DNA of 64,000 nucleotides from Peribolospora baueri (GCA_029717555.1 JAMDHS010000025.1:186001-250000), one strand, 5' to 3'; numbered from the stretch's first letter, positions 14,901 to 57,300 are shown. Made by a program: numbers and translations. The notes: generated from the sequence alone by a model not told the origin.

Positions 14901-15609
14901 TCGCCACTGCGCTCGAGATCAAGGCCAGATTGAGGGACAGACTGTCCGACGCTTATAATAGCGGCGATTGGGGTGCACTTAAAGAGCTCGGGGGAAGGGG
15001 AAAGACGAGCGCTTTGGGACGGCTGGTTGATACGGTGGAAATGATCTGGAGGTACCATCGTCAGATGTGGATGAGCATGTACAAGGTGCGTGAGCTCGCC
15101 GTCATGCGTATCCGGATTCTTCACCAGCTTCGCTTGGGTCGCGCTCATCTCCCTCTCTCTCCGGTCACCCTGTTCCCTGTTCACAGCCCTTCGGCTGGGA
15201 GTCCCTTGAACTCCGCTATGGAGGCCTCCGCGCCCGCCTGGACACGATGCACAACCGCATCGCCCGTTTCCTCGACTACATCGATGAGATGGGCGGAGAC
15301 GTGCCTCCGCCGTCGTTGCGCAGGGCCCACCGTCAGCAGGCGGGCGACCCGTCGGCCTCGCGAATCGACGTGGACGTCGACGACGCGCAGGCCAGTCCCG
15401 ATGGCAAGGCGGCCGGCACCGGCGCTGTCCCGGCTGGATCGGTCAAGACGCCTGACGTGTTCCTGGACGTGCGCGGGGCGGCGACGAACGAGGTGTACGA
15501 GGGCAAGGTGACGAGCGTGCCCGAGCTCGAGGAGGAGCTCCAGGTGGCGTACGGGAGCACGGAACAGTTGCTCGATTACGTCAGGGTGTCGAGGCCCCAG
15601 TACTATTGA
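11926..15609 (+). CDS. Glycoside hydrolase family 20 (HEXDC-like beta-N-acetylhexosaminidase), no signal peptide (multi-exon)
   Basis: GTMIDCSRNGVL, LQLYTEDTY, EPFFGYLRGGYT, QTLGHLGQMLQW, IHLGMDE (catalytic DE), MIWSD, LVYWDYY, TIWGDEG. Confidence 0.88.
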
Positions 15610-16415
15610 TGGGTCGTCTGAGCCCAAGTCGAGTAGCGTCGACCTCGGCCTGTCGGTTCAAATCGGTTGGACCGGGCAGGCGCGTCGATGCCGCACGGAC
15701 CTTATCTTTCTTCCTCCTAATCTGGTGGGCGGGCGGCTGGGACGCGCCTGCCTTCTGACGCCGGGCTCCTCATATGGACCGAGGGCGCGCATCTCCTGTT
15801 CGTCTCTTTCGCTCTTGTCTGTCCGCCGAGCTGCCTCATCTCCATCTGAACATCCGTCCTTCGTATGTATGCTACATCTCTTTGGGTAGCTAGACCGCAC
15901 GGGCCGACGGTGCGATGGGTTGCAATACATCAGTCGATGGCGCTTGGTGCCGGGTACACCTAAGCTGCCGCTGATCGATTTGGCCGGCTGGTCGCATGGG
16001 TCGATCAAGGTGGTCCACCGGAGGGCGCAGAAGGAGCATCGCGCGGATACTCTCCTCGAGCCCCACGCTCGAGACGGTCACGGTCAAGCTCCAGGGCAGG
16101 CGGTGACCGGATGTGGACTTGGACGGCCCCCAACCTGGTGGATATATAGACTCCGCGAGACCCGGTCTGCCGCGAATCGTTCCACTGGTCGAGCTGCCTC
16201 TCGTCGCTGGGGTGGAAGCCGCAGCAGGCAGGCCACGGTTGCTCGCCTGCCAAATGGGAGGTCGTCAGAGCTCGAAACGCATGTTTAAGTTCGAAAGAGG
16301 CCTCAGAAGGATCGAGGGCATGGACGTGGACAGTAGGCGGCGGCGCGAAAAAAAACCCCACCGCAACGACGAGAAGGGTTTTATGATAGGCGTAAAATAC
16401 AAGAATAACGTAACA

Positions 16416-16509
16416 GGCAGGATGACCGAGTGGTTAAGGTGCTGCATTCAGGACTTCTGAAGTTGTTCTGCAGTCCGAAAGGGCGTGGGTTCGAATCCCA
16501 CTCCTGTCA
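16416..16509 (+). tRNA. tRNA-Leu(CAG) with a 15-nt intron (16453-16467)
   Basis: Acceptor stem GGCAGGA/TCCTGTC with discriminator A. D-loop GAGTGGTTAA. Anticodon stem CTGCA/TGCAG with TT-CAG-G. Variable arm CCGAAAGG. T-arm GTGGG-TTCGAAT-CCCAC. The intron contains CTGAA, which pairs with the anticodon loop. Confidence 0.95.
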
Positions 16510-16513
16510 TAAC

Positions 16514-16535
16514 TTTTTGGAACTGGAAGTTTTTT
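16514..16535 (+). terminator. RNA polymerase III terminators (T5 then T6) after tRNA-Leu
   Basis: TTTTT at 16514-16518 and TTTTTT at 16530-16535, directly after the tRNA 3' end. Confidence 0.8.
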
Positions 16536-16643
16536 ATGCTTGGCATCCGTGTTGAGTCTGATCGGGCCGCGACGTGTGAGTCTTGTTATCTCCGCTTGTG
16601 TCCGTTTAGCCTCTTTCCTGGAGAGACGCCGGGCGCACCGGCC

Positions 16644-16760
16644 TTCATCGGCAACTGGGTACTCTTCGAACAGGAGCTCCACCACCACGCCGGCACAGTG
16701 TCCATGAAAGCCGGCGTGGTGGTGGAGCTCCTGTTCGAAGAGTACCCAGTTGCCGATGAA
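16644..16760. repeat. Perfect 51-bp inverted repeat with a 15-nt loop
   Basis: 16644-16694 (TTCATCGGCAACTGGGTACTCTTCGAACAGGAGCTCCACCACCACGCCGGC) is the exact reverse complement of 16710-16760. Confidence 0.97.
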
Positions 16761-16880
16761 AGCCGGCGTGTCCTCGTCATTTCCGAAGAGGTAGGGCCCG
16801 AACCAGGAATGGGCTACCGAATCGAAGTACGAGGCCGTGTAGATGACCTTGTTTCTATCAGTCGAAAATCGCTGCGGATT
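16710..16880 (-). pseudogene. Ty3/gypsy retrotransposon Gag-like fragment
   Basis: Hand translation NPQRFSTDRNKVIYTASYFDSVAHSWFGPYLFGNDEDTPAFIGNWVLFEQELHHHAG fits the Retrotrans_gag pattern (PxxFxxDxxKVxYxxSY...AxxWF...WxxFxxEL). No start codon, and an in-frame stop lies ~45 nt upstream. Confidence 0.72.
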
Positions 16881-17065
16881 GAGGGGAAAGATTGGAGTTA
16901 TTGCGCCAACCTGACGTATTATTCATTCACTAAGGAAAATAGGTTTCCGGTTGTAAATCTGCGTTGCCCGGTACAAAAAGCCCTAGCAAGGGAAGGAGAG
17001 GGGCAATGGATGCAAGAGGAGATGACCGGACCCACACGTGGCTAGCCGATAAGATTCCACAAGTG

Positions 17066-17706
17066 TGTGGGATTCTAGTGTACTGGTCCGGTCATCTCCG
17101 CTTGTGAAGTTGAGTTTTATATTCAGCAGACGTCAAGACCGGCCGATAGCCGACAGAACAGCACGCCTCCGACCGGGTCAAGTAGGCATCGAAGAATAAG
17201 GCCTGATCAGCCTACTGCAAGATGAACCATCCTCGTAACGACGAGATTGACCCGATGGACGGTCAGACTCCGCGGCTGGCTGACATGATGGAGGGTCAGA
17301 CCCCCCGGCCAGCAACGGCTCCCGTTCCGCGAGCCGGCCGCGCACATGGAGACCGCCGACCAACGTTGGGATGTGTGACCGACGCCATAACAGCGTTCAT
17401 CTGTGTCATCATCATGCTCATCCGCGCCTCCCAACGTTGGTCGGCGGTCTCCGTGTGCGCGGCCGGCTCCGGAACGGGAGCCGTTGCTGGCCGCGAGGTT
17501 TGACCGTCCATCGGATCGCTCTCGTTGTTACGAAGATGGTTCATCTTCATCTTCCAGTAGGCTGAGCAGGCCTTATTCTTGGATGCCTACTCGACCCGGT
17601 CGGAGGCGTGCTGTTCTGTCGGCTATCGGCCGGTCTTGACGTCTGCTGAATATAAAACTCAACTTCACAAGCGGAGATGACCGGACCAGTGGACTAGAAG
17701 CCCACA
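17066..17706. repeat. Element B: ~640-bp foldback (arms 17066-17371 and 17429-17706, 57-nt loop) with TGTGGG...CCCACA ends
   Basis: The arms are reverse complements with scattered substitutions and indels of 33, 6 and 1 bp. 17082-17179 pairs perfectly with 17593-17690 (98 bp). Confidence 0.95.
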
Positions 17707-17881
17707 GCGGTCAGATCGCGTGCATTTGTTCAGATCAAGTAGCGAGGGACAAGCACGACAGCGTTTGTTATAGTCGACATGGTATCGGTCGGATCTCTGG
17801 CATAGGATGGAGAGCGGGAGATATGTATAGCGGACACACGGACAGCAGAGATTACGGAGAAAACGACAGCGAATACAGGCG

Positions 17882-20800
17882 TCACGACGCCCGAGGCGGG
17901 ACTCGGAACACCTTGAGAACGCCAGACCGGAGGTCGTCTGTCATGGAAGGATGGCGGTCAGCACGTCGCACATGTCCGCCACGCCGACGCCCTGAAACTC
18001 ACCGAGCCGGTAGCTGACCTCTTCAGCCGCGTGCGCGTGCCTACCGCCGGCCCTTTGGGGCGACTGCAACACTCTCAACTTGCGCTTCTTGCCGTCGTTC
18101 TCCACCACGACGCCGGCTTGGGGCGTCGAGGCAGTGCCGAATTGCTGGTGGTATGGTGCCAGTCTAAAGGAGGAAAAGAGTGTGAGCGCTGCGCAAAGAA
18201 ACCCTAATACTCGTACTCACCCTTTCTTTCCCTTCAAATCCGCTCCGAATGCGAGCAACACATCCCCTGGCCGGACCTCATCCGTGTGGTTGGTAACACT
18301 GGGCCCCACTTGTTCGAAAACGGGCACGCCGAGGCTCTGCGCGGCCGACGGGTGAACGTGGGGCACGGAGCGGAGGGTGGCTAACACGAACGCAATGGCG
18401 GCGTCTGGTCCCGTTTCCTGAAAAAGGTCCGAGGCGGGCCTCTGCGCGAGGCTCTGCGCGGAACGGACAATGTCGCCGGCCAGGAAGCTGGACCATTGTC
18501 GGAGTTGGTCGGCCGACGGAGGACCAGAGGGAGGCGCGACGGGCGCGGAGGGCTGCTGCGACTGAGGGGCGACAGGAACGTCTTGTGCAGCATGAGGGTC
18601 GCCGAACGATGCCGGCGACTTGTCGGGGACAGCCGGCGGTATGTCAACGCTGTGCTCTTCCACGTGTGCCGGCAGCTCGTCCGGTTCGTCTTTTGGGCTT
18701 GCAAACGGCTGGGGTTGGCCTGCTGCCGGTGGCGGCCTGTTAGGCCTTGCCGGTAAGTTCCTCGACGGAGGTGAGGCCGTCCAGGCCGTCGTATCGCTAA
18801 AACCGGTACTCGAGTCGGTGGCCTCGAAGCCTTCGTCCATGTCGTCCACGGAAACGTCGCGTGACCGCCCGCCTCCCGAAGCCACACTGGCGCGTTGGCT
18901 GTACAGACCTTGGGGAACAGGTGGACGCTTGGAAGGAGGGGCAGGGGCGGGGGCGGCGACGGGAGCGACAGCCGCCGTCTCTATCCCCTTAGAGTCTTCG
19001 GTGGATCGCACGTTCTCGCCGCCCGTGGGCGAGACGGGTGGGAGGGAACGCTTCGGCGCCGGCGCTGGAGGCCTCGCCGACGGACGAGGTGGAGCCGCGG
19101 GCGCATCGTCCTCGCTGGCCAGTTCAACATCCTCATTCAACTGCACCGACTCTACTTGAGCGGCGCCGGGAGGCGACTTGGTTCTGGAAGGCATCCCAGG
19201 GATGGGAACCGCCGGCAGACCGAAGATGGGCACGGCGCCAGCGGGCAAGCCGGGAATCCGCCTCGACGGGGGAGCAGGATGATGAGCGCTCTCTTCTTCA
19301 TTCGGGCTCGCCTCTTCCACATCTTCCACAGGGACGCGACGCTCAGGCTCATCCTCGGGATCCGCCGTCGTCGCGCCGTACGTCACGTCCTCGTCGCAAG
19401 TGCTTCTGCTGGCAGGAGCCATCGGCCTCCCGGCAGGAGAAGAGGGCTGCTCGGCCTCCGTCGCCGCCGCCATCGCAGGCTTCGACCTCGGCTTTCCCGG
19501 AACATGCCCGCCGAAGAGGGGACCGCCCATCCTCTGTCCACCGAGAGCGGCCATACGCTTCGCGATGGCGGCCCGACGGGCTGCTTCCATCTCCTCCTCC
19601 GTCTGCGGCTGCTCTTGCTCCTCTTTCACCTCGGTTTCTTGGGCGGGGTCTTTTCCAGAGAGGGAAGTGTCCGGGGCCGTTACTCCGGCAGGTTCAACGG
19701 GCTCAGCGACGGCTTGAATGGAATCCTTTGCCCCATCTTCCGTCGCTCCGGACGGTGCATCGCTCTCCTGCATAGTCGAGAGATCACGGTGAACATGTCC
19801 TGGACCCTCGACGGGTTCAACGGGTTCCTCCGCCTCCCCGTCAGAGTCCGCACCAGCGGTCACAGTACCAGCCATCGGAATGAGATCAGCCGCCGGCATG
19901 GGAATGGGGACATTCACGTTCGTGGGCTTAGCGACTGGCGCATCCTCGATGGGGGGTTTATCGGAGGACAGTTCACGCTGCGGTTGGACGGGTTCCGCGT
20001 GGGCGTGCGTCGCCGTGAGTTCAGTCGCGCGCGTGACAGGAGACATCGTATCGGCAGTGCTCGGCTGCTCCATTTGCTCAGTCGAGCTCGCTGGTGCCAA
20101 CTCGGAAGCGCCTCCAGCTGTACCACTTTCAGACGAAAACGGTTTCGTCTCGTCCTTGACATCCGGATGGGCGGAAGACTCCACTGGCGGCGTCTCTTCT
20201 TGCCTGAAAGTGGCCCCCTCCCCACCGATTTCCACCTCGCCGCGTTTGCTATCCGTCGGATCAGAGGGCTCGACGGACTCCTCCGCGACGCTCTCCGCCG
20301 CGGGAGTCCGCGACGGCGGCTCCGAAGGGAACTCTTTGTCCTCCACCGCTGGGGTGCCCGAGGCGAGGAGACCGAGCGAGGCAGGGTCGTAGAATGCCTC
20401 AGAAGAACTAGTCTGTTCGACGGCGACCACGGATTCATCCTTCGGAGTGGCGGCGTCAGCGCTCTTCACTTCCGTCGCGGAGGGTGAAGGGCGCAGCCGT
20501 CGAGGTGGGGCGGTGCGACGTGGCAGAGGCTTCAGCGGTCCGGTCGATGCGGGAGAGGACGATTCGGGAGACGCGCTCGAGGGAGACAGGCCAGACTCGG
20601 TGCTGCCCTCGGCGGCAGAAGCTTGGCGCTCGTCCGATACATCTTCTTTGCCAGCCTCGGTGCTCGCCGCCCTTGGCGGCCGCGGGGGAGCGGGCGCAGG
20701 CGCGGGCGCAAACACGGGTCCACCCATCCTCCGCCCTCCCAAAGCGGCCATGCGTTTGGCGATCGCGGCGCGGCGAGCTTGCTCGGCCTCTTCTTCCGTC

Positions 20801-22455
20801 TGCTCTTGGCTCGCGGTGTCTCCGACACCCGCGTCTTGAGTCTCGCCTTCCGCGCGGAGCGAGAGAGGTTCGATGGACGACTCGCTCGGGGGAGAAGCAG
20901 CCTCCTGCGAATGCGACGACGGGCTCAATGTCGCGCTCTCACCCTCCGGCGGAGCCTCGCCGCCGTCGGCCGTGATGCTGGTCCGAGAGTCGCTCGAAGC
21001 CTTGCGCGCGGGCTTGGGCGGCGCGGACGCGCCGAGTCCAATGGCACCAACGGCGATGCCGCGACGTTCCACGGACAGCTTTCCGGGCACGGGAGGTCTC
21101 TCCTTGGCCGTAGTTGAGCTGGTTTCCTTCCTGTCACCCTCGTCATCCTCCTTAGGCTGGCCCCTAGACAAGGCCGCGATGCGATCCCTCAAGCTGCCAA
21201 CTTTGACGGCGCTTCGAGCATCAGCGGCGGACATGCCGCTCTCCCTCTTCTTGTCTTCGCTGTCGGCGTCCGCGCTCACCGATGACGGAGCAGCCCCGGG
21301 GAAACCTCGACGGACGAAACCGCCGCCGGAAGGCTTGCCACGCGGCAAAGGTGGAGGAGCGGCGTCGGCGGGCTTGTTGAAAGCGGCGATGCGGTCCCGG
21401 AGCTGTAACAACGCGAACGATAAAAATTTAGCTAAGAGGTTCGGAGATCCCGTATCTCAACTCAAACGGCGCTCACGGAATTAGGCTTGGACGGCGGAGG
21501 TGGTTTCTGCATGTTCGAAGCGGCAGGCGTGGAGAGCACGAAAGACGTCGTCAGCATGCTCTTCTCGCGTGACACAATTGCTCTAGTCGCTCACGGGCTT
21601 TGCGTCTGTCGGTGGTGACGTCGGCTTCGGCTCTTCTTGCTTCAGTGGCTCTGGCTCCTTTGATTCTAGCTCTTTTGACTCTTGCTCCTTTGGCTCTTGC
21701 TCCTTTGACTCTTGCTCCTTTGGCTCCAGCTCCTTTATCTCTTGCTCCTTCGGCTCCGGCTCCTTTGACTCTGGCTCCACGGGCTGGGGCTCATCTGCTA
21801 CCGGCACTGGACCAGGAATCGTTTGCGCTTCGACGTTGGGCAAGGTGGACGAGCCCTCCTCAGTCGCAGCAGACGCAATGGCCGAATCCGACCCGGAACC
21901 CTCAGCGGTCGCCGACGTGGGGTCAGCTTGGACATCCGAGCTCGCGCTTGCCATCGCCGGTTCCGCCGTAGGACCTTCCAACTCGCCTGGGGGGGCGTCG
22001 GGTGAGACAGGCGAGACCTGGGGTGGAGCGGCGGTCAAAGGCTCGGTCGCTTGATGTTCGGAGCTCGGAGCGCCCAACGCAGCCTGGGGTTGCTCTTGCT
22101 CCTCCACCGACCTTTCCGCTTCCGCCTCAGCAGCGAGCGGCGCCGGCGTGTCAGCATTGGTCTCTTCTGGATGTCCGGACGCCGGAGCTGGAGGCGGGGC
22201 AGCGTCACCTTCAATCCTTCTGACAAAGCCGGCGGGAAAGGTGCCCTTCCTGGTGCCGTCCAAGCTCTCTCCTACGAGCCAGTCGTCATCGTCATCGTCG
22301 TCCTCGTCGCCAGCCTCTTTCGCCTGCTTGGCGAGCGACAAGACGCGAATGGTATCGTTCTTGGCAAAGACAAGGTCGCCGGCGTGAGGAGACCTGTATT
22401 TCATCGCGGCGACAGCGAGGTAAGGGAAGGTGCTATGCCCTGCCTGCGCGGCCAT
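17882..22455 (-). CDS. SH3-domain, Pro/Glu-rich actin-patch protein, Bbc1/Mti1-like (multi-exon)
   Basis: N-terminal SH3 (AAMKYRSPHAGDLVFAKNDTIRV...DWLVGE...GTFPAGFV). Repeated 'LRDRIAA' and 'RRAAIAKRMAALGG' motifs. C-terminal domain EVRPGDVLL...GKKG|...KKRKLRV...SYRL|DDLRSGVLKVFRV. Confidence 0.8.
21640..21780 (-). repeat. 15-bp coding tandem repeat (E-x-E-x-K pentapeptide, ~9 copies) in the SH3 protein
   Basis: EPESK EPEPK EQEIK ELEPK EQESK EQEPK EQESK ELESK EPEPL. Confidence 0.9.
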
Positions 22456-32094: not shown

Positions 32095-32261
32095 GGCGAT
32101 TGCGAGGCCAGGGTTCTCCGTTGTCGAAAAAAAAGGGCCGAGGTGAAAAAGTGGAGATGGGAGGCGACGGGGGGAAGAGATGAGGCGGCGAAGGTCGGCC
32201 ACTGAACCGAACAACACGGCGCCGTGAGGTCAGTGGGGTGGAGAGAAGGGAAGGAGCAAGT

Positions 32262-32878
32262 TAAAAATGATTGAGCACGATCCGCCGGGCGGGCCGCACT
32301 CAGTGGGAGTTCCCTACCTATGCTTCTTACTGAAGACGGCTGGGGCCGAACCGAGGCGATTAGACGTAAAGTAAGTTGGGAGAAGGAGAAAGAGAGGGAA
32401 GGAGGGACAGGCGAAGGGGAAGACAAGCACATCCGACGGCGGCGGGGTCCGCCGTGAAGCCCCGGCCGCGATGCCGGGGCGAGTGACTTTTTGGCAGCCA
32501 AGGCACGCCCGACCGGCCACCCCGTCGATCACCCAGTGCCCCCGACTAGGGCGCCGTTGTGCCTCGCCCAGTGCCTGGCGAAGCGTCGAGCAGAGGACCC
32601 ATGGCTAGGAGGGACAGACAAATGAGCGGAGATGGCGAACGGGACGACAGAAGGTGACGGAGCACGTCTGCCCGCGTTCCGGAGGCGATCCGTGATCGTC
32701 GTCGGCTTCGATCAGTCTTGCTTGTGCGACCTCGTTGCTTGTGCGACCCTCGGGCTTGTGCGACCCTCGGCGTCTCGGAGTCCGACGAAATGGTCCCGTC
32801 GCGAGGCGTAAAAAATGATTGAGCACGATCGGTCGGGCGGGCCGCAATCAGTGGGAGTTCCCTACCTATGCTTCCTAC
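32262..32878. repeat. Dispersed ~68-bp direct repeat (32262-32330 and ~32810-32878) plus 3x17-bp tandem repeat (32720-32770)
   Basis: AAAAATGATTGAGCACGATC...GGGCGGGCCGCA.TCAGTGGGAGTTCCCTACCTATGCTTC.TAC occurs twice. GCTTGTGCGACC(C)TCG occurs three times. Confidence 0.9.
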
Positions 32879-42389: not shown

Positions 42390-45300
42390 TCACTGATCCT
42401 CCGCGACCTTGGCTGCCCACTGGCGTAGCGTCGCGCTCAGCACGTCCGGCAGCGCCTCAATCTGACTAACGACAACATAGTACTCGAACGGGAACGTGTC
42501 GAGGTAGCGGTCCATCTGCAGCTCCATGCGGCCGTCGATGGGGTTGGTGCGGTAGGAGACGGACGACATGGACAGGATCGAGTTGCGGGGAGGCTTTGTA
42601 GTCGCAGGCGCAGTGACTGCAGCAGACGATGAAGGCTTAGAGCCGTCGGCGAGAGCGTCAACAATGACAAAGACGATCATAACACGCTGCTCGGCCGCTC
42701 GTCGAAGGAGGGCTCGCAGCTTGTCGTGTTCCTGGCAGACGCCGTCGGAGATGATCACTTCAAGCTGCCACAAGTCGCTGGCCTTGCTGCCGGATGCCGA
42801 GCCGGCGCGCTTCTCGCGCGCGCGCTGGAGATGTTCCAGTGAGGACTCGACGAGATGAAGGACGTTGGTGCCACGTTGGTCGAACCTGAGCTGTTCAATA
42901 ATACGAGCGCCGGCGTCATCGGTCAGAGGGCCGGCGTCGAAATCGTGAAGCACGTCTACGGTCTCGCCAAACCGGCAGATGGATACGTCGCCGACTTCCA
43001 GTCGATTAAGTGCCTTGCTAACGAGTGCAAGAGTCTGGTAGGCCAGATGGATGCTGTGGCTCTCAGCCATCGACTTGGAATCGTCCATGGCGACGAGCAC
43101 CTGGTATTCGCGCTGGCTGGGACGCGTCCGACGGAGCCAGATCTTGTCCTTCGTGAAATCACTTGCGATAAACGGGATAATCTTCTTCATGTTCAGACGT
43201 TTGCCAGTACGATAGTCACCCTTGAGCCTCGTCGCTAGTGTAGGTTCCAGGATCAGGCGCAGCTGCTCGCAGAGCCTAAAGGCCAGGTCATGCGTCAGCG
43301 CGTCATACTGCCGCCAGAGCTCGTCCGCAGACGCAGCTCGACCGTCGATGTCAGTGAGTTTCCACTCTTTGAGCTGTTGTTCGAGTTGCTCTTCCTTCAA
43401 GCGGTGCTCAGCCTCCTGCATCGGAGCTCCATCCTCGATGACCATGTTCTCCAAGGACGCTTGACCTTCGGCATCATCAGCAGCTCCCAGTGCCTGCATA
43501 TCCTCGTCGTTCTCTTCTGAAACGTGCTGTAAAGCAGGCGGCTCCGCGACATCGAGAGGTGAACGATCGATTGGACGCTCCGCCTCATCTGCGTCATCCG
43601 CCTCAGCAATCGAGTCGACGTCGCGGCGGAAGTCTTTCAGCGCATCCCCCAGGCTGCGCAGAGGGTTCCGTTGCTGGCCAGCATCGTCTCCGGCCGCAGC
43701 TGGGTTCGGCTCGGGCGCAGCCTCCGAGTCGTCTCCGCCGGACGGTTGGGGAGGTCGCGAGGCAGCTGGTTGCGACAGATCAGCAGAGCCCATCTCTTGA
43801 CTTGCATCCTGGGGTCCGTTGGCGGCTTGAGTGGGACGACCGTGCGAGTCAATGGCAGAACGGTCGTTCTCGGCGGAGCTTTCCTCCGGCGCATCCCGAG
43901 GAGCTTGATCCTCAACGTCCTCCTCCATGGGCGCATCCTCGGCGGCCTGCCCGTTCAGCTGCTGAACACCGTCGTTCATGCCTACATCTGCGGGCCCGAG
44001 GTCCTTGCCGCCAGCATCCATGTCCTTGTCCCCGTCTTCATCAGCGGGTTCGTCCTGATCGTCACCCGTCTCTTCTGCAAGTCCGGACGGAGACGCCGGC
44101 GTCCCTTCTTCAGGTACGGGTTCAGCGTCTTGTGGCTGCACCTCAGAATCCTCCGCTCCCTTGGCCGAATCGTTTTCGCCGTCGATGTCCGATTCGGGCC
44201 CTTCCGCCTCGTCTCCCTGCTCCTCTTCCTCCTCCCCGAGATCCATTTGGTCAGGCAAATCTAGCGTCTCCGCGTCGGGAATCTGAGAATCGAGACGGGA
44301 GCCCTCCGCATCCGTCTGACCTTGGTCGTCCTCATCTTGGTTGGCATCATCTTGAGGAGCATCCTCCCCTTGTTCCTCCTCAGCGTTGGGTCCGTCGTGT
44401 TGCTTGGCCTCAGCGTCCTCAGCATCTGCTGATCGCTCTTGCTCCTCGGGAGGAGCCGGAGACGAGCGATCCTTCTGCGGAGGAGTCTGGGTGTCGTCTT
44501 CCTTAGCAACCATGTCGGATTTGTCCTGCTTGTTGCTTGACCGGTCCTGATCAATTTGGTCGTCCTTGTCCTCGGACCCAGACTTAGTCTCATCACCCCA
44601 GAGCTTCTCGTCTACGGCATTCGGATCGAGGGGGTCGACATTGTCCATGCGCTCCTCCGGGTCCTCTTCTTGCTCATCCTCCTCGTCACCTGATTGGTCC
44701 ATCGTATCCTCAGCCTGAGCATCAAAGTCGTTGGACATCTCGACGGCGTTCTTGTTGGCCTCGGTCTCGCCCTTTGTCTCCTCCTGTTCCTGCTCGCCTC
44801 GAACGCCCTCCATTTGAGATTCGTCCTCGATTTGATTGGAAACGTCCTCCATCCCTTCACCCTCTCCGACGCCCGTGCCGTCCTCCAACGCCTCAGCAGG
44901 CCCGCTGTCGTCTCCGTGGCCGCTTCCATCGTCTGCGTCCGGTGGCTTGCAAAAGCCCTGCTCCGTCAGCCTCGTCACCATTGAGCAGAGGACGTAGATG
45001 AGCTTGAGAAGGCACTTGTACCAATGTGCTGATGCTGTTACGTGAGCTTGGGCGACCGCGACATAGGCGCTGAGGAAGGGCGACAGCCGGCGGAGTCCGA
45101 GGCTTACGCTGCCAATGTCTGTTGACGTTGTTAGAGCGGCCAGATCTTCGAGTTCGTTGATAATCTGGTCAGGTTGAAGTGCCCCTTGAATCTTGCGAAG
45201 TCGCATCCGGTCTGCGATTGCAATGGCTTGTTCGTCTTCATCCGTCTCACCTACCGCCAGAGCCTTCTGTGAGCTGACGAGGATGACATTGATGGTGCGG

Positions 45301-48300
45301 TCCACCTGGCGGCTCAGCCCATCTTCATTACCGGAAACAGTGCCCTGAGATCCGGATGCCAGAGCTTGGATATCATGGGCGGTAACAAGACAATCACTGA
45401 ACCACTCCGCTATTGGCACGAAGAGATGGCTCAAAGGGGGCGCCTCGACCGCCCATTTTTGAGAAATGGAAGCAGTCTTGATGACAAGATCCGCCGCGCG
45501 CAGTAGCTGCTGGCTCTCCGAGCTCGTTAACTTGGCGAAGATCGAAACTGCACATTGGATGTCCTTCATCCACCGGGCACACTCAACTGCCTGTGACCGC
45601 AGATCAGCCACTGTGCGCGTGAGGCCTTCCACCTCAGGCAAGGGTATGGGCAGCATACTCGCGTAAAGTGCTGTCTCAGTAGAGACCTCGGCGAGGGCGT
45701 CGACCAGTTGGTGCAATATGGTCTCCAAGGAGGAGATTTTCTCTTGAGAGCCTTCGACAGACAGCAATGACCCTGCTGACGCCAGAACTTGCATCCTCCG
45801 CTCCATCGCTTGAAGTTTGCCCACGTGCCAGAGAAGGTTTGCAATGCGAGCTCGCTCCCCGAAGGCCATGGACATGGCTGACTCCACTGAGTTAGCATCT
45901 TTGCGCAGTTCGGACAGCGGCAGATCTGGATGAGGGCTCAGAAGAGCATGGCGCATCTTGGGCAGAGAGGCGAGCAAACGGAAATGGTACTCGTTCGCCC
46001 TTTGAAGAAAGACAGCGGCGGAAGAACCGGTACTGGGCGTGTTGTCCGGGTAAGGCTGACCGTAGACGAAGGCGGAATCAGTGTGCTGCGACATGACCTT
46101 GGCCTTTACCGATGAGGTGAAGCCCATCTCCTTCTGGACAACGGCACGGAATCTCTGCCAAGCGGCCGTCTTCCGCCTTGTCAGCTCCTTGATGCGCTTG
46201 GCGTTGTCTTCGTTGGCCACCGCTGGGGTTTGTGTGGCCAAGTCCCGTGCCGTGGCCACAACCTCCTCCACCAGATCGTCCATTCGTTCGGCCTGATGCG
46301 CCAGGACACTGGGCACGATCTTGTCCCTGACCAGGACCGAGAGGACTGCATACGTCCGAGCCAGGTCGGACAAATGCTTTGGGCCCTCGTTCGGGCCCTC
46401 AGCTTGCGACTGTGCCGTGGTCTCGAAATAGCGAGGATCCAGATCTTGAAGATACACTCCCGTGCCAGTGATCTGAGTCGGCTCTGGGAAGGGTCGTGGC
46501 TCGCCATCGCTAGCCATGGAGGCCATGATAGGATCTGTCGGCTGCCGTAGAATGTCGCGGAGCTTCCGGATACTCTTGTACAACTGACGATGTGACTTCT
46601 GAGCGCTAGCCTTAAGAGCGTGAACATTGATGTCCTTCCACGAGGCAAGCTGAACAACCTCACGGACTTCCTTCTCCACGCTCTCCCGCTGCTCTCGGAT
46701 GATCATGTCGACTCTTCCGACATGCTGAGAATAGAACGCCTGGACGTTCATACAAACGGTAGCAGCCTCTTTGAGACCAGCCACGTCTGCACCGGTGGCG
46801 TTGCAAATCAGTTGAGAGATGTGAACCGAGAAAGACCGTAAAAGATCGACGCGTGCCTTAAACTGGCCGAGAGGACTTGACCGAACGAACTGATCCAAGA
46901 CGGAGACGAGGCTGCGGACGTGACTAGCGAGAGCGCCGTTGTTGTCATCGGTGGACTGGGCAGCAGCACGAGTTCCCTGGACGACCGCTTCGTATAGTCT
47001 GAACCACCATTCAGCGACATCTTCCGCAACGGCGCGCGATTCGGCACTGAGCAACTGGGGCCACGATGCAAGCTCGAGCCGGCGCCATCCCACGATCAAG
47101 TCAGAGATCTGCTGCCGGTGAAGCGCAAGTGTCGTCTCTGAGCTGGCATAGCCTTCCCAATCCTCCGAGTGCAGGAGTAACTGCTCCAAGGCAGAAAGGA
47201 GCCGGGGGAGCGGACTATGTAATTTGATGTTCAAGATGGCGTCGACACGCTCTCTGAGATGGTGTAAGATCATCTGCTCCGGCCACTCGCTGATCAATGC
47301 TGCCAGTCGCGCATGCAGGCCGTTGAGGATCGCTAGTGCTTTACGTGCCTCTTGAATATTCGGCTGCCGGTAGAAATCGTACTCTGAAGGGACCGTTTGG
47401 AAGTTGTTCAATTGATCGCCGAGAAGAGCAAATTGGAAGGCCGCACTATCGAAGTCGAGGCCTGCAGGCGAATGCTCGTAGATACCGGTAATGACGCCTT
47501 TGAGAGTGTGGCGTCGAGCGTTCCGGAACGCATCGCGAGCTGAGAAAGTCTGGCCTTCTGACCCGAATAGACGATCGTACGTTCGGTACGTCTGAAGGAT
47601 GTCGTCCCGCTGCAAGTGACCGCGCTGAGACGCTGGCGTACGTTCCGACCCGCTGGAACGAAGGTTGTCACCTCCCATCACGTCATCGTACTCAGGGAAC
47701 ATGCGCCTAAACTCGGCTTCCGCCTCCGCTTCTTCGTCGAGATTGGTCTCCTCATGGCGAACCTTGTAGAGGCTTTGCGCTTCGACCCGCGCCCGTTCCT
47801 CACGCTCGCGATCAAGCATCCAAAGGTTGAACAGCTGGTCAAAGGCGACACTGATATGTCGCAAGCTTGCTTGGGGAGCAATGCCAAGGTCGGCACCATA
47901 CGCGGAAGCATAGAGTGAAAGAAGCAAGAGACTGGCTGGAGGTAAGGCCGAGGCAAGCCGATTGACCTTGGAGACGTCGAGACAAGCCAGGCGATCAGCG
48001 GCGCGACTCGTAGGGAAGCAAGTGAGATGTTCCACGAGGACAATGCAAGAGGCGGCCTTCGGCGAGACATGTTTTTGGAGAGCTCCTTGCCAGGCAAAGC
48101 GAAGCCCGAGCCGACATAGACCTAGGGTAAGGACGAACGGCTTGAGGATGTCGCTAAACCTCTCCCCGTACACCTTGTCCAATCGGCGAAGGAAGTTGGA
48201 CGTTGAGGTCTGTAGTCCGGCTTCTCGTTGTGGCGCTTGCTGATCGCCGTGGCTCAAAGCCGCCTGAAGGTCAAGCAACTGGCGCTCTTGATAGAACTGC

Positions 48301-51300
48301 TCCATGAAGGAGTGGATCTCTTGATACATGGCAACGAGGGCCGACAAATCACTGGAGCGGCTGGTTGGTATGGACTTGAGTTGCTGCATCTCTGCTCGAA
48401 CGGCGTTGATCTCGCCGTCGAGCAGACGGACCTTCAAGTTCGAGGTCGAACCAGTAATGTTTCGTTCTGCAGCCACCCTGATCTGCCGCTCTGTTGTTAG
48501 CATAGAAAGTTGACGTTGCAGGAAATCCCTCCGACCATGGTGCGCGACCGCAGGATCAAGGGGTACGTTCGGCAGATAGAGCCGCAGCATGAGTAAAGCG
48601 ACCTTAGAGAACGCGTTACCGAGCTGGAACAGATCCACGGTTTGCGATTGAGAAGGCGTAATCGCCTCACGCAAAGCTTCCAAAATCAGCTCTGCCTTGT
48701 AGCAATCCGTTGGCGACAGAGCGGCAAGTTCCTCGTCCTGTAGCACGAGGCTCTTGCCGTCGACCACATCGCCCATTGTAGATCGTTTGATCGCGTCGTG
48801 GCTTAGCTGGAGCAACCGAGATGGAAGGACAGCGTCCATGCTTGCAAGGAACTAATCCAATCAGTTGGGAAAGTGTTGATTAGTTTCTCGTCTCCTGTCA
48901 TAACTAAACTTGATAGAACGTGCAAGACTCACGACCTCGACGCTGCTCAAGAGGAGGCGGAGGAAACCCTTTTCGAAAGACCACTTTCCTGTGAAAGAGA
49001 CGAGCGTTCGGATGGTGGCGAGGCGTTTCACGGACCCATGGTGATCGGCGAGCGTCCGCAAAGACGTGTTCGACAAGTCGCCACTAATCCCAATGAAAAC
49101 GCACTATGAGCAATAGCAATTTGGAATGAGCCGTGGCAGATTCGCTCACCATTCGGTCGCGAGCACCCTCAAAGCAGCCGGACGCAGGAGACATTCAGGA
49201 CCGACGGCAAAGTCGAAAACCTACGAAAGGAAGGCAGTCAGCATAAGATCCAGCCATTGTCACAGGGACTGACACTTACAGGACCATCCATCCAACGCCA
49301 TATCCGCTCCATCCAGCTAAGAATTGCTCCGATGTGCGAGCTGCGATTTGGCAATACTATCAGAGTCGAGAGAACAAACACTATGATTAGGCCCTTTCAC
49401 ATACTTCTTTGTACTCCTTGCCTGCTGACCACACTTACATTCACCGACTTCGAGCCTCCATAGGTCCTGTTTGAGCACCACGGCCGCATCGAGCGGGTAA
49501 CACGGACTGGCCATCACAGCATTCAGGAGAGCCTGTCTTTGCTCAAAAGTCTTTTGAACACGGGAACACGGAAAGTCAGAACGAAGAGCAACCAAGAACA
49601 TCATAAAATGAACAACACACCTCGCGCCTAGATGTGACTAGCGCCATTAGCTCTCCCTCTAGGAGTAGCACGCTCTCCAAATCTTCTCCGAGCGTGCGTG
49701 GGCGACTGTCCTTCGGAGGCGAATTTGAAATATTAAGAACAGCCTGTAGAAGTAGAGCCTGGTAAGCGGCGGGCCGTATCAAGCATGACACCTGACTGCC
49801 CTTACCTTCTCTGTACGCTCAGCAATCTCGAGAAGCTCGCGACGTTGCACAGGAGACCAGTCTGGGGTGCTCAGCATCAGCGTCGAGCACGTGTCGACGA
49901 GAGTCTTGAGCAAGTCTGCAGACGCGTCATTGGTAAGCGCTTTGCCCGCCCAGTATAGCAAAATTCCTTCGATAGTCTCACCAGGAGATAAGTCTTGGCG
50001 ACTAGCTGAGGCGGTGAGACGGGTCAGCCGCGCCGCCATGGCCAGAGTACTCGTGTCATCGTGCGACGGGAGGAACGTCGACCAGATCTCCTGCATCGCA
50101 TGACCAGTCGACAAAGCCACACGACCCTTCAAGGCTATGGCCTGCGCATGCAAGCCGTCCAAAGCCTGTTTCCAACCCATTTCGTCAGAATTGACAGCAT
50201 TGATTGCTTCCAAGATCCAGGAGAGCACGACTTGAACGAGGGAGAAGTTGAACTGGGCAAAGGTGCTGGCTTCCTCAAGGAACGAAGCGTAGCGGAGCAG
50301 CTGAGATAGACTGTGTAACCCGGTCTGTGGGAGGAGAGGGGCAAGAAGTTATGAGCCTAGACGAAATGGCGAAATGGGTGAGATCTCCCAATGTAGTAGC
50401 CTTACCAGACCAGCGTGGGCGTTGACGGTGGAGTTACAGATCATAACGACGGCCTCCCTTATAGAAATAATCAATGGCGCTACCTTTTCGACGCCGGAAG
50501 TCGCACTGTCACTCGGTAGCCTGCCCGAGTTGATGAGGAGGGACCGTTCCAGGGTCGACAGAGTCGGCAAGGGCTTCGACGCTGCCACAGCAATTGCAGC
50601 CCGCAGGGCCGACTGAGACTGTACAGCCTCGACGACCAGTTGAAGGCTTTGGACGAGTCCCAGCTGACCAGGGGTAACTTCCTCGTCGAAAACTTCGGAT
50701 GAGCCAGAACTGCGCTCGACAGTGTAGGGGTTGACGAAGGGATCGCAAGGCTTCGTCGTCGAGCGAAAAGGCAATCCCGCGATTAGGGTCACGACAAGGC
50801 ATAGGAGACATGTTCATGAGTCAAGCTCACCTGAAGGGAGAAGAAGCTAGGTTCAACTTTACGACAAGCGCTGACGAGCGCCATGGACTTGTCAAGCCTC
50901 TCAACGACACCTTGGGTAGGGAGAAGCTTGACAACCGCGCTCGTTTGTGAACCCTGTGGCCCAGAAATCGCATTCCCGAGGTAGATGAGCAAGCGACAGG
51001 CAGCGGAACGCGCCTTCAATGGCATCGACTGCACAAAATGCAGAAGAGCGGCGCGGCCACGATTTTCCATGCCAAGTTCGTCATGCTCGCAACATGGAGC
51101 GCCAAGAAGAGGGGATGCGCTCTGCAACAGCCACAGGAGAGCTGAATCGTCCGTGAGAGAAGACCAGGCCGCAGAAGCGATAACTTCACGACTGGCGAAT
51201 TTCATGGAAAGCGGGCCCGCTCCGCGTCGTGATAGCTGGCCGGTCAGAGAGCGACTGCTGAGGGCTGATCCCCTTGCTAGCCACGACAGGCGGCCTGTGT

Positions 51301-54300
51301 CAACTGATCCTGAAATGGGCGAATTGAGACTGATCTCGACTCCTCGGTTACGCATCGCGCGGGACAATTCGCCATGCTGGGGATCACAGAGCATGAAGAG
51401 GCGAAAGTCGGGGTGTGGTTTGATGACTGGAACTTCTCCATCGATGATGCTCCTCTCGGTCAGGGTGATTACTCCGTTTGGTTCGAAAAGAGAGTTTAGT
51501 CGGTCGAGAACTGACGCGTTGCAGAGGTTGGCGTGATCAATGAGAAGCCACGAGCCCTCCTTCATGGCGCGAACGAGGGGCCCTTCCTTCCACTCGAACC
51601 GCCCTCCACCTTCCATCGGCGTCTCTGCCAATGACCGTAGATGGGCCATGATTGGCGCGAGGTCGTCTTGTACGTCCCCTGCGACGGCGCTGACCTGCTC
51701 TATGGAGGCATTGACGACCTCCAAAGCTTGCCGGAAACCCAACACCTTCGGTCCGGATACCAGTGCTTTACCGGTTCTGCAAAGGTCCCCTTGCACTGCG
51801 TGAAGGCGGCTGGCTGCCTCCCTCGCGTCGCTGTGCCACAGAGAAGAAACCAAGCGTTCAACCAAAGCAGAGAGTCTTTCGATGACAGAGCCGAGGCTCG
51901 ACCACTGGCCCGCCTGCTCGAAGCTACCCAAGAGCTCCATCGTGTCTACGCCCGAGTTCATGCAGAACTCTTCCAAAGGACAGCCGCGAAGCTTGGCCAG
52001 ATGCCGCACCAGGCTCGTCTTGCCCGTGCCGCTCCGACCAGTAAGAATGACAAGCCACGACAGCTTGAGGCAGTCGCACACGGCCTCAAGGGGGGCAAGA
52101 TGGTTCTGGAGAAGTGTGGTCTGTCCTTGAAGCGGGCTGTCGTGCTTCTGCTGCCGAGCTAACAGGGCGTGACCAAATTGTGCATATCCGGGCGTAAGAG
52201 AAGGCCACGGCTTCGAGCGATTTGCCAGAGTGCCCGGTCCGAAGACTTCCTCAAAGACGTCCATTGCTCGAGCGCGATCTTCGACAGTTCGGAAACGGTT
52301 GAAGTAAATTGTGCCAACGTACTCGCTGGGTGTGCGAACGGCGCTGAGATCACCTTCGGCTGACAAAAGTTCTAGAAAGCGCATCAAGTCGCGCAAATTG
52401 AACTCCCAAGGACTTCCCAGCTGTCCAAATGAGCGTTTCATCATAGTCTCCTCGAAAAGGCGAGTGTTGAAAGTAATCATCTTGCGAAGGGTATCGTGCG
52501 GGAATGCGGGGTATAGATGCGATGCGATGATGAACACGTCTTGGGGCAAAAGCTCTTGAACGAAAACCTTGGTGAAGCGATCGAGGAACGATTTGGGAAG
52601 ACCTTTGCGCCCACCGCCTTGATTGTGCGGGTTCTGGGCGGCGAAAACACGGAATTCTGAGTGTTTTGGAAAACTGCGACCCAGCTCAGGGACGAAGACA
52701 GTCCCGCGATGATCAAGACACGAGTTGAGGCCTTCAAGGACCGCTTGCGAGGCCAGGTTGAGCTCGTCGAGGAGCACCCAGTCACCCTCGCGCATGGCCG
52801 ACAGAAACGCAGCGTCCTTCCAGCCGAATTCGCCCGCCTTGCCGCCTTCCACTGGCAGATCAGCGCCAAAGAGGTCGGTGAGGTCAGTCTGATCCGAAAG
52901 GTTGATGCGGCACAAACGATGTCCGGTAGCGTTGGCCAGAGCAGAGATCAGACTCGTCTTTCCTGCTCCCGGACTGCCCTCGAGAAGAATCGCTTTTGGA
53001 ACCTGCAACGCGCGCAAGACACGCAGCGCATTATCAGCGGTAGTCGGCGCTTGCAGACTGAAGGGCGTGTCAGGAGACGCATGGTGACCAGTTGGGATCT
53101 CGAAAGGGCCGATGGCGAATGAATTGGAAGAGCGAACGATCTGAGTCCTCGTCGCTGAACCGAGATCCACCGACTCGGGATGGACAAGCCGAACGATCTG
53201 TTCATGGCAGCGCTGTCGAAGCGCGGTGCGATGGGCAGGAGACATGGACGCTGTGACCGGTCGAGAGCCAATGGAGTCGACAATCGTCATCAAAGCCCCA
53301 TCCACAAAGGCTTGAGAGGCACCCACTTGGGCCGCCGAAGCGTTGATGAAGAAGACCCAGGCCAAAAGGTCTCTGAGGCCCACCCCAGCCTGCTCCTTGC
53401 CGCCAACCTCCGCGGCGAACCATTCGGAAAAGTCGAGCACTAGGGACGCGTAACGTTGCAGCTCTGGGGTCTTCAGCTTTGTCTCGACGATCTGAAGCAG
53501 GTCCACCCGATTGTCGACGTGGGGTACCCAGATTTCGGTGAAACGGTTGCGGAGGGCGGGCGACAGCTCCTTCTTCCCGTAGTCGCCGCCAGGGTTCATC
53601 GTGGCGAACACTTGGAAGCCGGGAACAGCAGTGACGTGCGTGTGCTCCTCAAAGCGGGAGGAACGCTCGGCCAACACAAGGGACCGGCCGGGTTCAAGGA
53701 CGCTGTTCAAGCGCTCCAGGACCGAGTCGTCAGCGAGGGAGATTTCATCGAGGAGGAGGAATTGGCCGGTGCGCATCGCCTGCACCAGCGGCCCATCGTG
53801 CCAGTCGAACAGCGCCATGGACTGCTTGATCCGTCTGGCAAGATCGATGACATCCGTTTTGCTAACTGTCGAAGGCGCAGACACAAGCTCATCCCATCGC
53901 CTGGCCAGCTTCTCCAGGCCATCGGCGAGCTCATCCAGTGAGGCTTCTAGAGCGAGCGACGGGTCTTCGGCGTCGACCTGCGAAAGATATTCCACCGCCT
54001 GAGTCCGTAAAGCCGCTTGCAAAGCAGCCTTGTTCCGGACAGGGCGTTGACCGCCGAGAAGGTCAGCCGTGTCGGTGTTCTGGTGTAGGTTGACAGTGTG
54101 AAGTTCGCGGCCGAACGCCCGCGCAAGAAGCTCGCAGACGCTGGTCTTGCCGCTGCCCGTCTCACCCACGAGGAGGACCGGCTCGTCACATCGCAAAGCT
54201 GTTGCGACTAGAACGTACAGCCGCTGCATGGCGCTGGTCCACACGACGCCCTCTTCCGCAGAAGCGGGTAGACTGACGCCTAGCCTGTCGCGCTGAGTGG

Positions 54301-57300
54301 CCTCATCCATGTGCGAGACAGAGTACAGAGAGGCCTCGTCGATGCGAACCTTCATCATCTGCTCGATCACCTCCTTGACCGTCGCCTTATCGTCCGGCCT
54401 CCTCGCTCGCTCGGCCAGAAGCATGTAGCCGTTCTCAGCCAGCTGCTGGTAGCCGACGGCCTCTCGACCGGCCCATCGGAAGAGGTCGCGAAGGGTCGCA
54501 AAGCTGTGCTTCGTCTCAAAAACGCGGTTAGACTGCCGTCGGCGCTGGAGTTCAGCGAAGACTGCGACGATCTTCGCAGCGTACGAAGGCGCAATCTTGC
54601 AGCGCTGACAGAGGATGATCTCTAGCTCGGCTTGAGGCACGTCGTCCACATGAACCTCGAGGAAACGGTTGCGGAATGCGCGACTGAGGACCTTCCTGCC
54701 GGCGTAAAGTCCTGGAGGGTTCTGAGTGGCGAAAAGCATGAAGTGCGGGTGGGGACGGACGACCTCTTGAGTTTCCGGAACGATCAGCTCGCGGTTGTCG
54801 TCGAGAAGGCGATTCAGAGCTTCGAGCACATCCGTCGGTGCAAGGTTGAGTTCATCCAGAACAATCCAATGCCCTTCCTTCAGCGCTCGGACCAAGAGGC
54901 CCTCCTGAAAGACGAGCTTGCCCGAGTCGGGATCGGTAGCGTAGGAGCCCAAATACTCCTGGATGTCGGTATGCTCGTGGTTGTTGACCCGCACGAAACG
55001 ATGGCCGGTTCGCCGGGCGAGATACTCCACCGCACTCGTTTTGCCAGCTGATGTGGGTCCTTGGATGAGCACTGGGAAGCGTCGCGTCAGGATGGCGCGG
55101 GACAAGTCGACCAGTTTGTTCTGGACAGATGCCGTGAGGACATACTCGTCGACGGAATCGAGAGGCAGCGGTCCCGTTTCGAGCCAGAAGGGGCCGATCT
55201 GAATATGACTGCTCTGCGTAGCGCCGGCGGGAGCTGGCGGCACGAAAGACAAGGCCTGTCGAGGGTTCTTCGCACCCGCCATGATGTGCTTCTCTGCGAG
55301 CCCGCGAACGACAGAGGCGCTCTGGTCGTTGAGGAGCATCGTAAACGTCATCAACAAGCCCTCCCAGAGCGCTCTCCTGAGTCCGTACGTGGGAGCGACG
55401 TCTGCGGCAAAGGTGAGAGCGCGAGCCAGGGTCCGCATGCTGTAGTGCGGGCGTTGATTCGAACCGTCCGCAAGCTGATGTGTCTGAGCGAGGTGTCGAG
55501 CGGCAACGTAAAATTCGGCGACGTCGAGCACGACCGCGCGATCACCTGCGGCCTGCTGGCCGATGTACCTCTCGACAATGCTCGTCAGCGCATCCCTATC
55601 CCTATCCGGGCTCGGCACAAACAGCTCCGTGAAGCGGCTGCGTAGCCCGACAGGAAGGTCTTTCTTCCCGACGTCCGTGGCCGGGTTCATGCAAGCGAAA
55701 AGACGGAAATCGGGATGACGAGGGATCGGCTCCAAGTCGCCTCGCTCGGTAAGGACGACGCTGGCATCCGGGCTCTGAAGTAGACCGGAAAGGCAGTCCA
55801 GTGTCTCGGGAGCGGCCAGATTGAGCTCGTCGAGAAGGACCCAGTCGCCGCGGCGGAGGGCCCGGACCAACGGCCCTTCGACGAAGGAGAAGACGAGAGT
55901 GGGGCGCTTTCCTGCGTGCTGCACCTCGAAGTCTCTGGCGCGGGAGTCAAAATCGGTCCAAAGCGAGTCGAGGTCCGTGTGATGCACACGACGCTTCTTC
56001 TTCGGACTGGGAGCGGCAAGTACTTCCCCATCAACGGCCCCAGAAGCGAGTGCGCTCAACCCCCCTTTGGCGCCCGACCTCTTCCGCACTTTCTCCAACG
56101 CCGTCGGAACCGTCTTGCGCCACGCCTTGGCGAGCTTGGCCCAGTCGCCGTTGGCGTATGCCTTGCGCTCAAAATCGAGCGGCCGGGAGTTGGTCGTCAC
56201 ATCGAACGTCTTCCCGAAAAGCGTCACCCACTCGTTGTGCAGTGCCGTCGCGGGGACCTTCGCATCCAGTGGCCGGAACGCACCCAGGAGATCCGAACTT
56301 TCGGTCTGCTGACTGAGGTTCAACGCGATGAGATTTCGGCGGGCCAGGTGAGCGAGTTGCTGGACAGCCGTCGTTTTTCCCGTTCCCGTCTCGCCGACCA
56401 TGAGCACGGGTTCAGAGAGGTGGGCGCAGACGGCCAGCCGCTCGAGAAGGATAGCGGACGGGCGAGTCATGGCGAAGTTGGGGGCGAGGGAGGAAGAGGC
56501 GCGCGACTGACCGCCTTGAGCGGCGGTGGCGAGACTAGCGCGGCCTATGCGAACCACGTCCGAAGCAGCACGCGAACCGCGTTCTTGAACCACTTCAGGC
56601 GTACGCATGTTCAAGCCCCACTCGGCCCGTTCCCTGCTGAGACCAAGACCTTCGGCAAGGGTTCCGACCACGGACGTGCTCCATTCCGCAGAGTCAGCAA
56701 GCTTGGCCTCGGGAGCGGCACCGACTGCGATGCCGGAGGACAGAGACCCGAGAAAGACGTCGCATGCCTCGATGAAGATCTCCTCCTGAAGGATCGGGTT
56801 CGCAAAGAGGTTCAGTGCGGCGGCGTTCGTCGGTGGTAAGAGGCTGTTTACGCGGCGACACCACTTGATTAAGTCGCGCATGCCGATGAGACGTGCGCTG
56901 GTCCCTCGGTTGACCATCCCCGTCTCCACAGCTGCGGTGGCCACGGCCTTCCACACGTCAACCAAGCACCGCAAGCCGTCATCCTCGGTCGAGGCAAGGC
57001 GGGGAAAGAGGCGGCTGAGGATGTCAAAGACGTCAGATTCTGTAGGGCTCGGTACCGCGACGAGCTTCCAGTGCTCGTGGCCCAGGAAGACGGGCGGAGG
57101 AAATGACGGCCGGTGAGGAGAAGAGCCTTGTCTAGGAAGCGAACTGCGCGTTCCAAAGATCATGAAGCCGGAGCCGGCTCGAACTTTGGCACGCCCCGGG
57201 ACGTCTAGAGTGGGTTCCTGGCCGATCCGTTTAGTCGGACCGAGAGCTTCAACCAGCTGGCCGATCACGGACAGCACCTCTGCGCCAGCCTTGTCGACGT

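Follow-up and report, generated by a model that had tools for sequence, protein, structure and literature searches.

The window, i.e., the whole 64-kb stretch of DNA that was analysed, is GC-rich (53–65%) and contains intron-bearing genes of an ordinary eukaryotic, fungal type, among them those encoding MMS19, a Hrd1/synoviolin-like RING protein, an AIM3/BBC1-like protein, an SNF2 helicase, midasin and ribosomal protein S5/uS5. The locus described here occupies a 2.7-kb gap between two convergent ORFs, its left neighbour being a GH20-like ORF on the plus strand (3' end at approximately 15511) and its right neighbour the AIM3/BBC1-like ORF on the minus strand (3' end at 18217). A tRNA-Leu(CAG) gene at 16416–16509 (+) was identified in this gap by Rfam (tRNA, 49.6 bits) and by ARAGORN with introns allowed, the latter program placing a 15-nt intron at position 37/38. 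It is the sole tRNA gene of the 64-kb window, and an Rfam search of positions 15000–19500 at the gathering threshold returned nothing besides it. The T5 and T6 terminators that the original prediction placed 3' of this gene are present, at 16513–16517 and 16530–16535, respectively. The predicted layout of the locus was likewise recovered with unchanged coordinates: following the tRNA gene by 40 nt, element A (16550–17061, 512 bp) is separated from element B (17066–17706, 641 bp) by the 4-bp spacer AGTG (17062–17065), on either side of which the termini of A and B face each other head to head. The only mobile-element remains seen in the 64 kb are found 40 nt from its only tRNA gene.

Elsewhere in the window, nine overlapping copies of a repeat with a 15-nt period were observed at 21620–21799, inside the minus-strand AIM3/BBC1-like ORF, and probably constitute a low-complexity coding repeat. 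A 71-nt direct repeat occupies a stretch that appears to be non-coding; its two copies (32260–32330 and 32808–32878) lie 548 nt from each other and are 93% identical. Furthermore, an uninterrupted ORF of 2153 aa (42393–48851, −), for which a Pfam search returned no match at E ≤ 1e-5, adjoins the midasin gene (50792–58315).

Beyond the 64 kb, contigs of four public runs (X1–X4) were compared with the window. X1 and X2 are possibly the source reads of the window's assembly and may therefore not be independent of it; X3 and X4 represent a sister organism, which carries a different organism label and is ~2.3% diverged. Contigs of X1, X2 and X4 were also found to match the 3' half of the tRNA gene (16481–16519) with other flanks, pointing to further genomic copies of tRNA-Leu or of a similar gene; the element terminus is not found at the start of any of the 30-nt flanks listed for these contigs.

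The five strongest inverted repeats of the 64-kb window all fall within A or B, the other five being at most 40 nt long and at most 75% complementary. Reverse transcriptase, integrase and transposase domains, the absence of which had been predicted, were found neither in the four ORFs of A and B nor in the 37 other ORFs of the window. Direct repeats in 16300–18000 are only 16–21 nt long, i.e., long terminal repeats are absent from this interval and the termini are inverted. Moreover, neither element taken singly nor the A+B pair shows a visible target-site duplication. The flanks are arranged in the order CATCCG–A–AGTG–B–GCGGTC, with two of four positions agreeing between the outer 4-mers, TCCG and GCGG, and three of four when the sister-organism variant at 16546 is used.

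Element A, which was delineated by repeat search, folding and end alignment, begins with TGTTG and ends with TCCACA; its terminal inverted repeats are imperfect and enclose an inner hairpin and a gag fragment. Its left end (16550–16630, +) comprises a diverged family terminus and a subterminal stretch, and its right end (16992–17061, −), inverted relative to the left, contains the core that A has in common with B; the outer ends are identical at 51 of 70 positions (73%). The inner hairpin (16631–16773), recovered by the inverted-repeat search, has arms at 16631–16694 and 16710–16773 around a 15-nt loop, and these match at 60 of 64 positions, with a longest perfect run of 51. It had been predicted that both segments fold back on themselves, with perfect stems of 51 bp in A and 98 bp in B; stems of these lengths were found, and the folding back holds nearly end to end for B and only in part for A, where ~200 nt are unpaired. 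RNA folding of A gave a z-score of −17.6, with none of 100 shuffles performing as well. When positions 16601–16650 were searched, the subterminal stretch from 16601 matched a loose-end interior of the sister organism over 29 aligned nt, a score reached by 1 of 1000 shuffles.

On the minus strand of A, positions 16707–16886 were assigned by homology to a Ty3/gypsy capsid (gag) fragment of ~60 codons without a start codon. A search among 1.84 billion representatives yielded 39 protein matches at E ≤ 1e-3, the best with E = 1.3e-9. A domain scan covering 15 of these 39, namely single-stretch matches of 290–662 aa (six multi-stretch matches, P0003, P0006, P0010, P0014, P0025 and P0035, were left out), placed Retrotrans_gag above the Pfam cut-off in 14 of the 15 and Ty3_capsid in the remaining one. 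By BLASTP, the fragment is 55% identical over 51 aa to one of the scanned matches (E = 2e-17). A Pfam scan of the fragment itself returned DUF4939 only, and weakly (E = 0.13), so that the gag assignment rests on the homologues of the fragment. The homology search thus confirms the gag-like fragment anticipated in A, and with it the proposal that pieces inside the locus derive from a retroelement.

Element B, delineated by repeat search, folding and arm alignment, is bounded by TGTGGG and CCCACA and forms a near-complete foldback consisting of a left arm (17066–17371), a turn (17372–17428) and a right arm (17429–17706). The inverted-repeat search recovered arm pieces of 161 nt (96%), 58 nt (86%), 43 nt (91%) and 41 nt (98%). 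When the arms are aligned in full, 268 positions match and 18 do not, and there are three indels (6, 33 and 1 nt) in addition to unpaired letters at the turn; the 33-nt indel corresponds to a stretch found in the left arm only (17261–17293, +), a local duplication. The longest perfect stem of B measures 98 bp, and the arms are mosaic in that this perfect block sits between stretches that are 86–91% alike. A single-base insertion at 17330, which is specific to the window's organism, breaks the pairing. As an RNA, B has a minimum free energy of −565 kcal/mol (z = −38.7), which was equalled by none of 20 shuffles. A RIP-type bias between the arms was not seen, 10 of their mismatches being transitions and 8 transversions.

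Read on the minus strand, the right arm of B opens with the 41-nt terminus, which 5 nt separate from a leader of ~110 nt; the start of an ORF follows, with the ATG at 17550–17548. No homologue of this 53-aa ORF start was found among longer proteins, a result that constitutes weak evidence by the method's own statement, and taking it for the start of gag would be a guess. Diverged paralogous contigs, differing by 7–12% from the B right arm and present in both organisms, run past 17386, 17393 and 17410, and beyond the turn they enter sequence unlike that of B in which, as read by eye, the same frame is open. Since these paralogues continue where B turns back, a parent without a foldback exists, the right arm of B being the original and the left arm an inverted copy. 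The original, parent-derived part, delimited by the ORF call and the diverged contigs, corresponds to 17386–17665 (−) and contains the leader and the first ~65 codons of the ORF. In B, the family terminus is fused directly to the leader sequence of the parent.

The evidence that the terminus defines a family comes both from the window and from the contigs. A 22-nt core occurs in the window only at the right end of A and at both ends of B, where none would be expected by chance, and these ends also have a TGTGG start in common. The left (17066–17106, +) and right (17666–17706, −) 41-nt termini of B, as defined by contig boundaries, are multi-copy in the genome: on the left, four contigs whose flanks differ break off precisely at 17066, and three depart at 17106 into a different interior; on the right, four contigs whose flanks likewise differ begin directly behind 17706, and two enter at 17666. 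The TGT...ACA ends are in this way borne out as true repeat-family boundaries, at which other genomic copies of the terminus end to the nucleotide. The terminus is thereby placed in a family of low copy number that is sharply bounded by TGT/ACA, A being a diverged member of it. The alternative interior behind the family terminus is pyrimidine-rich, and neither the B interior nor the right subterminal stretch of A matched the alternative family interiors. The exact 22-nt core had no match in metagenome contigs. Of note, a contig of X3/X4 reads a 26-nt part of the terminus (17669–17694) twice, with 12 other letters in between, which suggests a partial tandem or a nested family end in the genome of the sister organism.

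The interiors of A and B behave differently from the termini. Judged by contig cover, they are without repeats at ≥85% identity, and in X1 the k-mer depth of the interior contigs (111.8 and 97.6), a measure not to be equated with copy number, is close to that of the flanks (115.4 and 107.9), which hints that the interiors are single-copy. The suggestion that the elements form a family accumulating at tRNA genes was not upheld, as the examination covered one tRNA gene and as A and B seem to have single-copy interiors. Furthermore, the two interiors show no similarity to each other, 950 of 1000 shuffles scoring as well, so that a single parent for both would be an assumption; by the same measure, homology between the stretch of A that leads from the terminus to gag and the leader of B was ruled out. 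A further candidate, that the termini derive from the neighbouring tRNA, with which they have GATGACCG, AGTGG and GAATCCCAC in common, was also rejected, since 52–77 of 2000 shuffles were as good and the reverse complement scored equally high. A feature common to all arms of A and B is that the coding piece stands in sense orientation relative to the terminus.

The concern that the inverted structures might be assembly artefacts was addressed by the contigs of the two organisms, which support them. The contigs of X1/X2 show no differences from the window in long flanking pieces and bridge the A turn (16644–16733), the A/B junction (16731–17111) and the B centre (17150–17622), the last of these being spanned by one 473-nt contig. 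In the flanks, the sister organism shows 38 differences from the window over 1683 positions and, in a further piece, 27 over 1831. Its contigs lead from the left flank through the left junction of A to 16685 and resume at 16756–17103, across AGTG and the start of the next terminus, with seven differences (7/348), so that the spacer is bridged in both organisms. The sister organism also has the B interior (17136–17371) with four differences (4/236) and the B turn (17342–17458) with one (1/117). As the structures are present in two organisms, the inversions predate the split between them. Divergence between the organisms amounts to ~1–2% in the elements and 1.5–2.3% in the flanks, and with the elements diverging as the flanks do, nothing was found that indicates selection on the hairpins. 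Both elements are old: the ends of A agree at only 51 of 70 positions, and the differences between the arms of B exceed the divergence between the organisms.

The two organisms are not identical at the locus in two respects. Firstly, positions 16686–16755 are replaced in the sister organism by 24 nt that match 16732–16754 at only 18 of 23 positions, and the A hairpin there is a quasi-palindrome that is short and decayed, preserved about as poorly as the ends of A (73%). Secondly, a sister contig departs from the window at 17103/17104, 3 nt before the junction between the terminus and the interior of B, and continues for at least 240 nt in the other, pyrimidine-rich interior of the family. This departure implies that the left arm of B is not identical in the two organisms, and that its history is more complex than modelled here.

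Taken together, these data are best filed under a kind of element that is already known, i.e., retroelement-derived foldback relics beside a tRNA gene. In our estimation there is about an even chance that A and B are old, non-coding and probably immobile foldback derivatives of one low-copy TGT...ACA family, which are decaying neutrally. This family most likely corresponds to the 5' end of a retroelement of the Ty3/gypsy type. The presence of sense-oriented coding pieces in every arm fits with deletion derivatives of the 5' end of one element. Each arm would have been built from an outer terminus (41 nt in B, ~50–80 nt in A) joined, by internal deletion, to a sense piece of the 5' region, which in B would be the leader with ~65 ORF codons and in A the ~60 capsid codons, and would then have been mirrored. 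The exact coincidence of both arm ends with the terminus, together with the missing target-site duplication, makes it probable that the palindromes predate or accompany insertion and were not produced by a rearrangement at the site afterwards. They may have formed before or during insertion, either as snap-back/copy-back DNA of an internally deleted copy or by the pairing of two identical ends, and the palindromic DNA would have been inserted, non-canonically, into the gene-free zone downstream of the tRNA gene, after which the locus would have drifted at about the neutral rate. The concerted action of an integrase should leave a duplication of 4–6 bp, and the lack of one at A and B counts against this explanation. 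The head-to-head termini of A and B, 4 bp apart, are reminiscent of an LTR–LTR circle junction.

Yeast Ty3 is an LTR retrotransposon that targets tRNA genes. The Skipper-2 chromoviruses of dictyostelids are, in the part of the source drawn on here, described as lying 7–136 bp downstream of tRNA genes (PMC5006619). A and B resemble these two systems in their TG...CA ends, in the Ty3/gypsy-type capsid fragment and in their position 40 nt downstream of a tRNA gene. However, they differ from them in that direct long terminal repeats, pol and a duplication are all missing, and tRNA targeting would be deduced here from a single site. The lack of direct repeats and of pol means that A and B are neither an intact LTR element nor a solo LTR.

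The later history of the locus, on the reading preferred here, may be ascribed to template switching during DNA synthesis, which would now and then re-copy one arm from the other. In the portions of the sources consulted, template switching is described as homogenising and extending the arms of inverted repeats (PMC8794818, PMC8604942). The A hairpin is comparable to such cases of quasi-palindrome correction, with an arm that appears to have been re-copied and a longer perfect stem in one lineage that is decayed in its sister (PMC8794818, PMC8604942, PMC13100816), although the published cases, as far as these excerpts go, mostly concern shorter repeats, and the direction of change in A is deduced without an outgroup. 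A single re-copying of one arm could account for the clustered differences in the A stem between the organisms, and the perfect 51-bp stem of A is most likely a recent repair product, a direction proposed without outgroup polarisation. Template switching could in this manner give rise to the perfect 51-bp and 98-bp stems without selection.

Decay in place, by which a nest of LTR retrotransposons near the tRNA gene was later scrambled within the chromosome by repair deletions and inverted duplications, is an unlikely alternative origin for A and B. It is compatible with the missing target-site duplication and with the single-copy appearance of both interiors, and it also draws on the comparison of the two organisms, between which the A hairpin has demonstrably been reshaped, in the manner of template switching, and the interior beside the left terminus of B differs. 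However, decay in place offers no reason why an inverted duplication should stop exactly at an element terminus, whereas the arms of B and the ends of A all finish at the TGT/ACA boundary of the other genomic copies, and such an event would have to have occurred twice, side by side.

It is distinctly unlikely that A and B belong to a mobile, non-autonomous, MITE-like family of foldback/TIR elements that is moved in trans by a Ginger-like transposase or a retroelement integrase and that prefers sites downstream of tRNA genes. According to the sections of the source used here, Ginger elements have TGTNR termini and inverted repeats of ~40–270 nt, Ginger1 duplicates CCGG/CCGT, Ginger2 makes a 4-bp duplication within RTATAY, and a Ginger2 vestige is reported in a fungus (PMC2836005). 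A and B show the TGTNR termini of Ginger1 and Ginger2 and inverted repeats of at least 40 nt, here 41–70 nt (PMC2836005). The multi-copy termini with their sharp boundaries would also suit a mobile family, as would the side-by-side occurrence of two members 40 nt away from the sole tRNA gene of the window, given that a dictyostelid chromovirus is known, from the excerpt cited above, to target sites downstream of tRNA genes (PMC5006619). In contrast to what is described for Ginger (PMC2836005), neither a 4–5 bp duplication nor a CCGG/CCGT or RTATAY target is present, and without target duplication A and B fail as Ginger elements. In addition, no integrase-like transposase was seen in the window, and A has a gag fragment, which is not a Ginger feature. 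When foldback and MITE-type elements are considered more generally, A and B are similar to these in being small and non-coding, in having inverted termini that recur in the genome and, for B, in forming a hairpin from nearly one end to the other. They are dissimilar in their lack of a target-site duplication and in that their interiors, which are not repeated at ≥85% identity by contig cover, appear as single-copy, sense-oriented retroelement pieces and not as a homogeneous family; such coding pieces fit deletion derivatives better than random capture. The ends of A, moreover, are only 73% alike. A narrow search of the literature found no account of foldback MITEs in fungal genomes.

The functional proposal, i.e., that the locus, and above all B, is a working source of hairpin RNA, in which read-through from a neighbouring gene would transcribe the ~300-bp arms and Dicer-generated small RNAs would silence the parent retroelement, is considered improbable. 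The closest parallel is Mu killer of maize, which the available part of the source describes as a natural inverted duplication of part of MuDR that silences MuDR (PMC3440606). B, too, contains an inverted terminus and a 5' gene part as one hairpin adjoining host genes, with two inverted copies of terminus, leader and ORF start (PMC3440606). Diverged copies of the parent exist in the genome, the convergent neighbouring genes make read-through conceivable, and the locus has been retained in two organisms. Against this, Mu killer derives from a DNA transposon and has a hairpin of ~4 kb, whereas B measures 641 bp and has decayed arms; for Mu killer, transcription, small RNAs and silencing are demonstrated, whereas B is known from its sequence. 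Furthermore, the element divergence (~1–2%) equals that of the flanks (1.5–2.3%), the A stem is decayed in the sister organism, and pairing between the arms of B is interrupted by 18 mismatches and three indels. A promoter is not apparent, the tRNA gene is trailed by its T5 and T6 runs, and retention over 2% divergence requires no selection. The original suggestion of a locus that stores retroelement pieces for silencing found no support in these data. Finally, that the inversions are absent from the genome and arose in assembly is barely credible: palindromes are a classic source of misassembly and X1/X2 possibly comprise the same reads as the assembly, but the contigs of the sister organism independently carry the left junction of A, the A/B junction and the B turn.

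If the locus is the ordinary relic favoured here, it would serve as a worked example of how retroelement debris collects beside tRNA genes in a compact fungal genome and of how foldback elements may be built from an element's own 5' end, and it would illustrate that long perfect stems produced by template switching look selected but need not be. Read more boldly, the insertion of snap-back retroelement DNA by an integrase without target duplication would represent an undescribed route to foldback elements. It is a long shot that B is a fungal counterpart of Mu killer, in which read-through would feed RNAi, the parent would be silenced and template switching would renew the perfect stems; were B found to yield transcripts that are processed, a fungus would provide one of the few natural examples in which the hairpin of a single locus sets off the silencing of a retroelement family.
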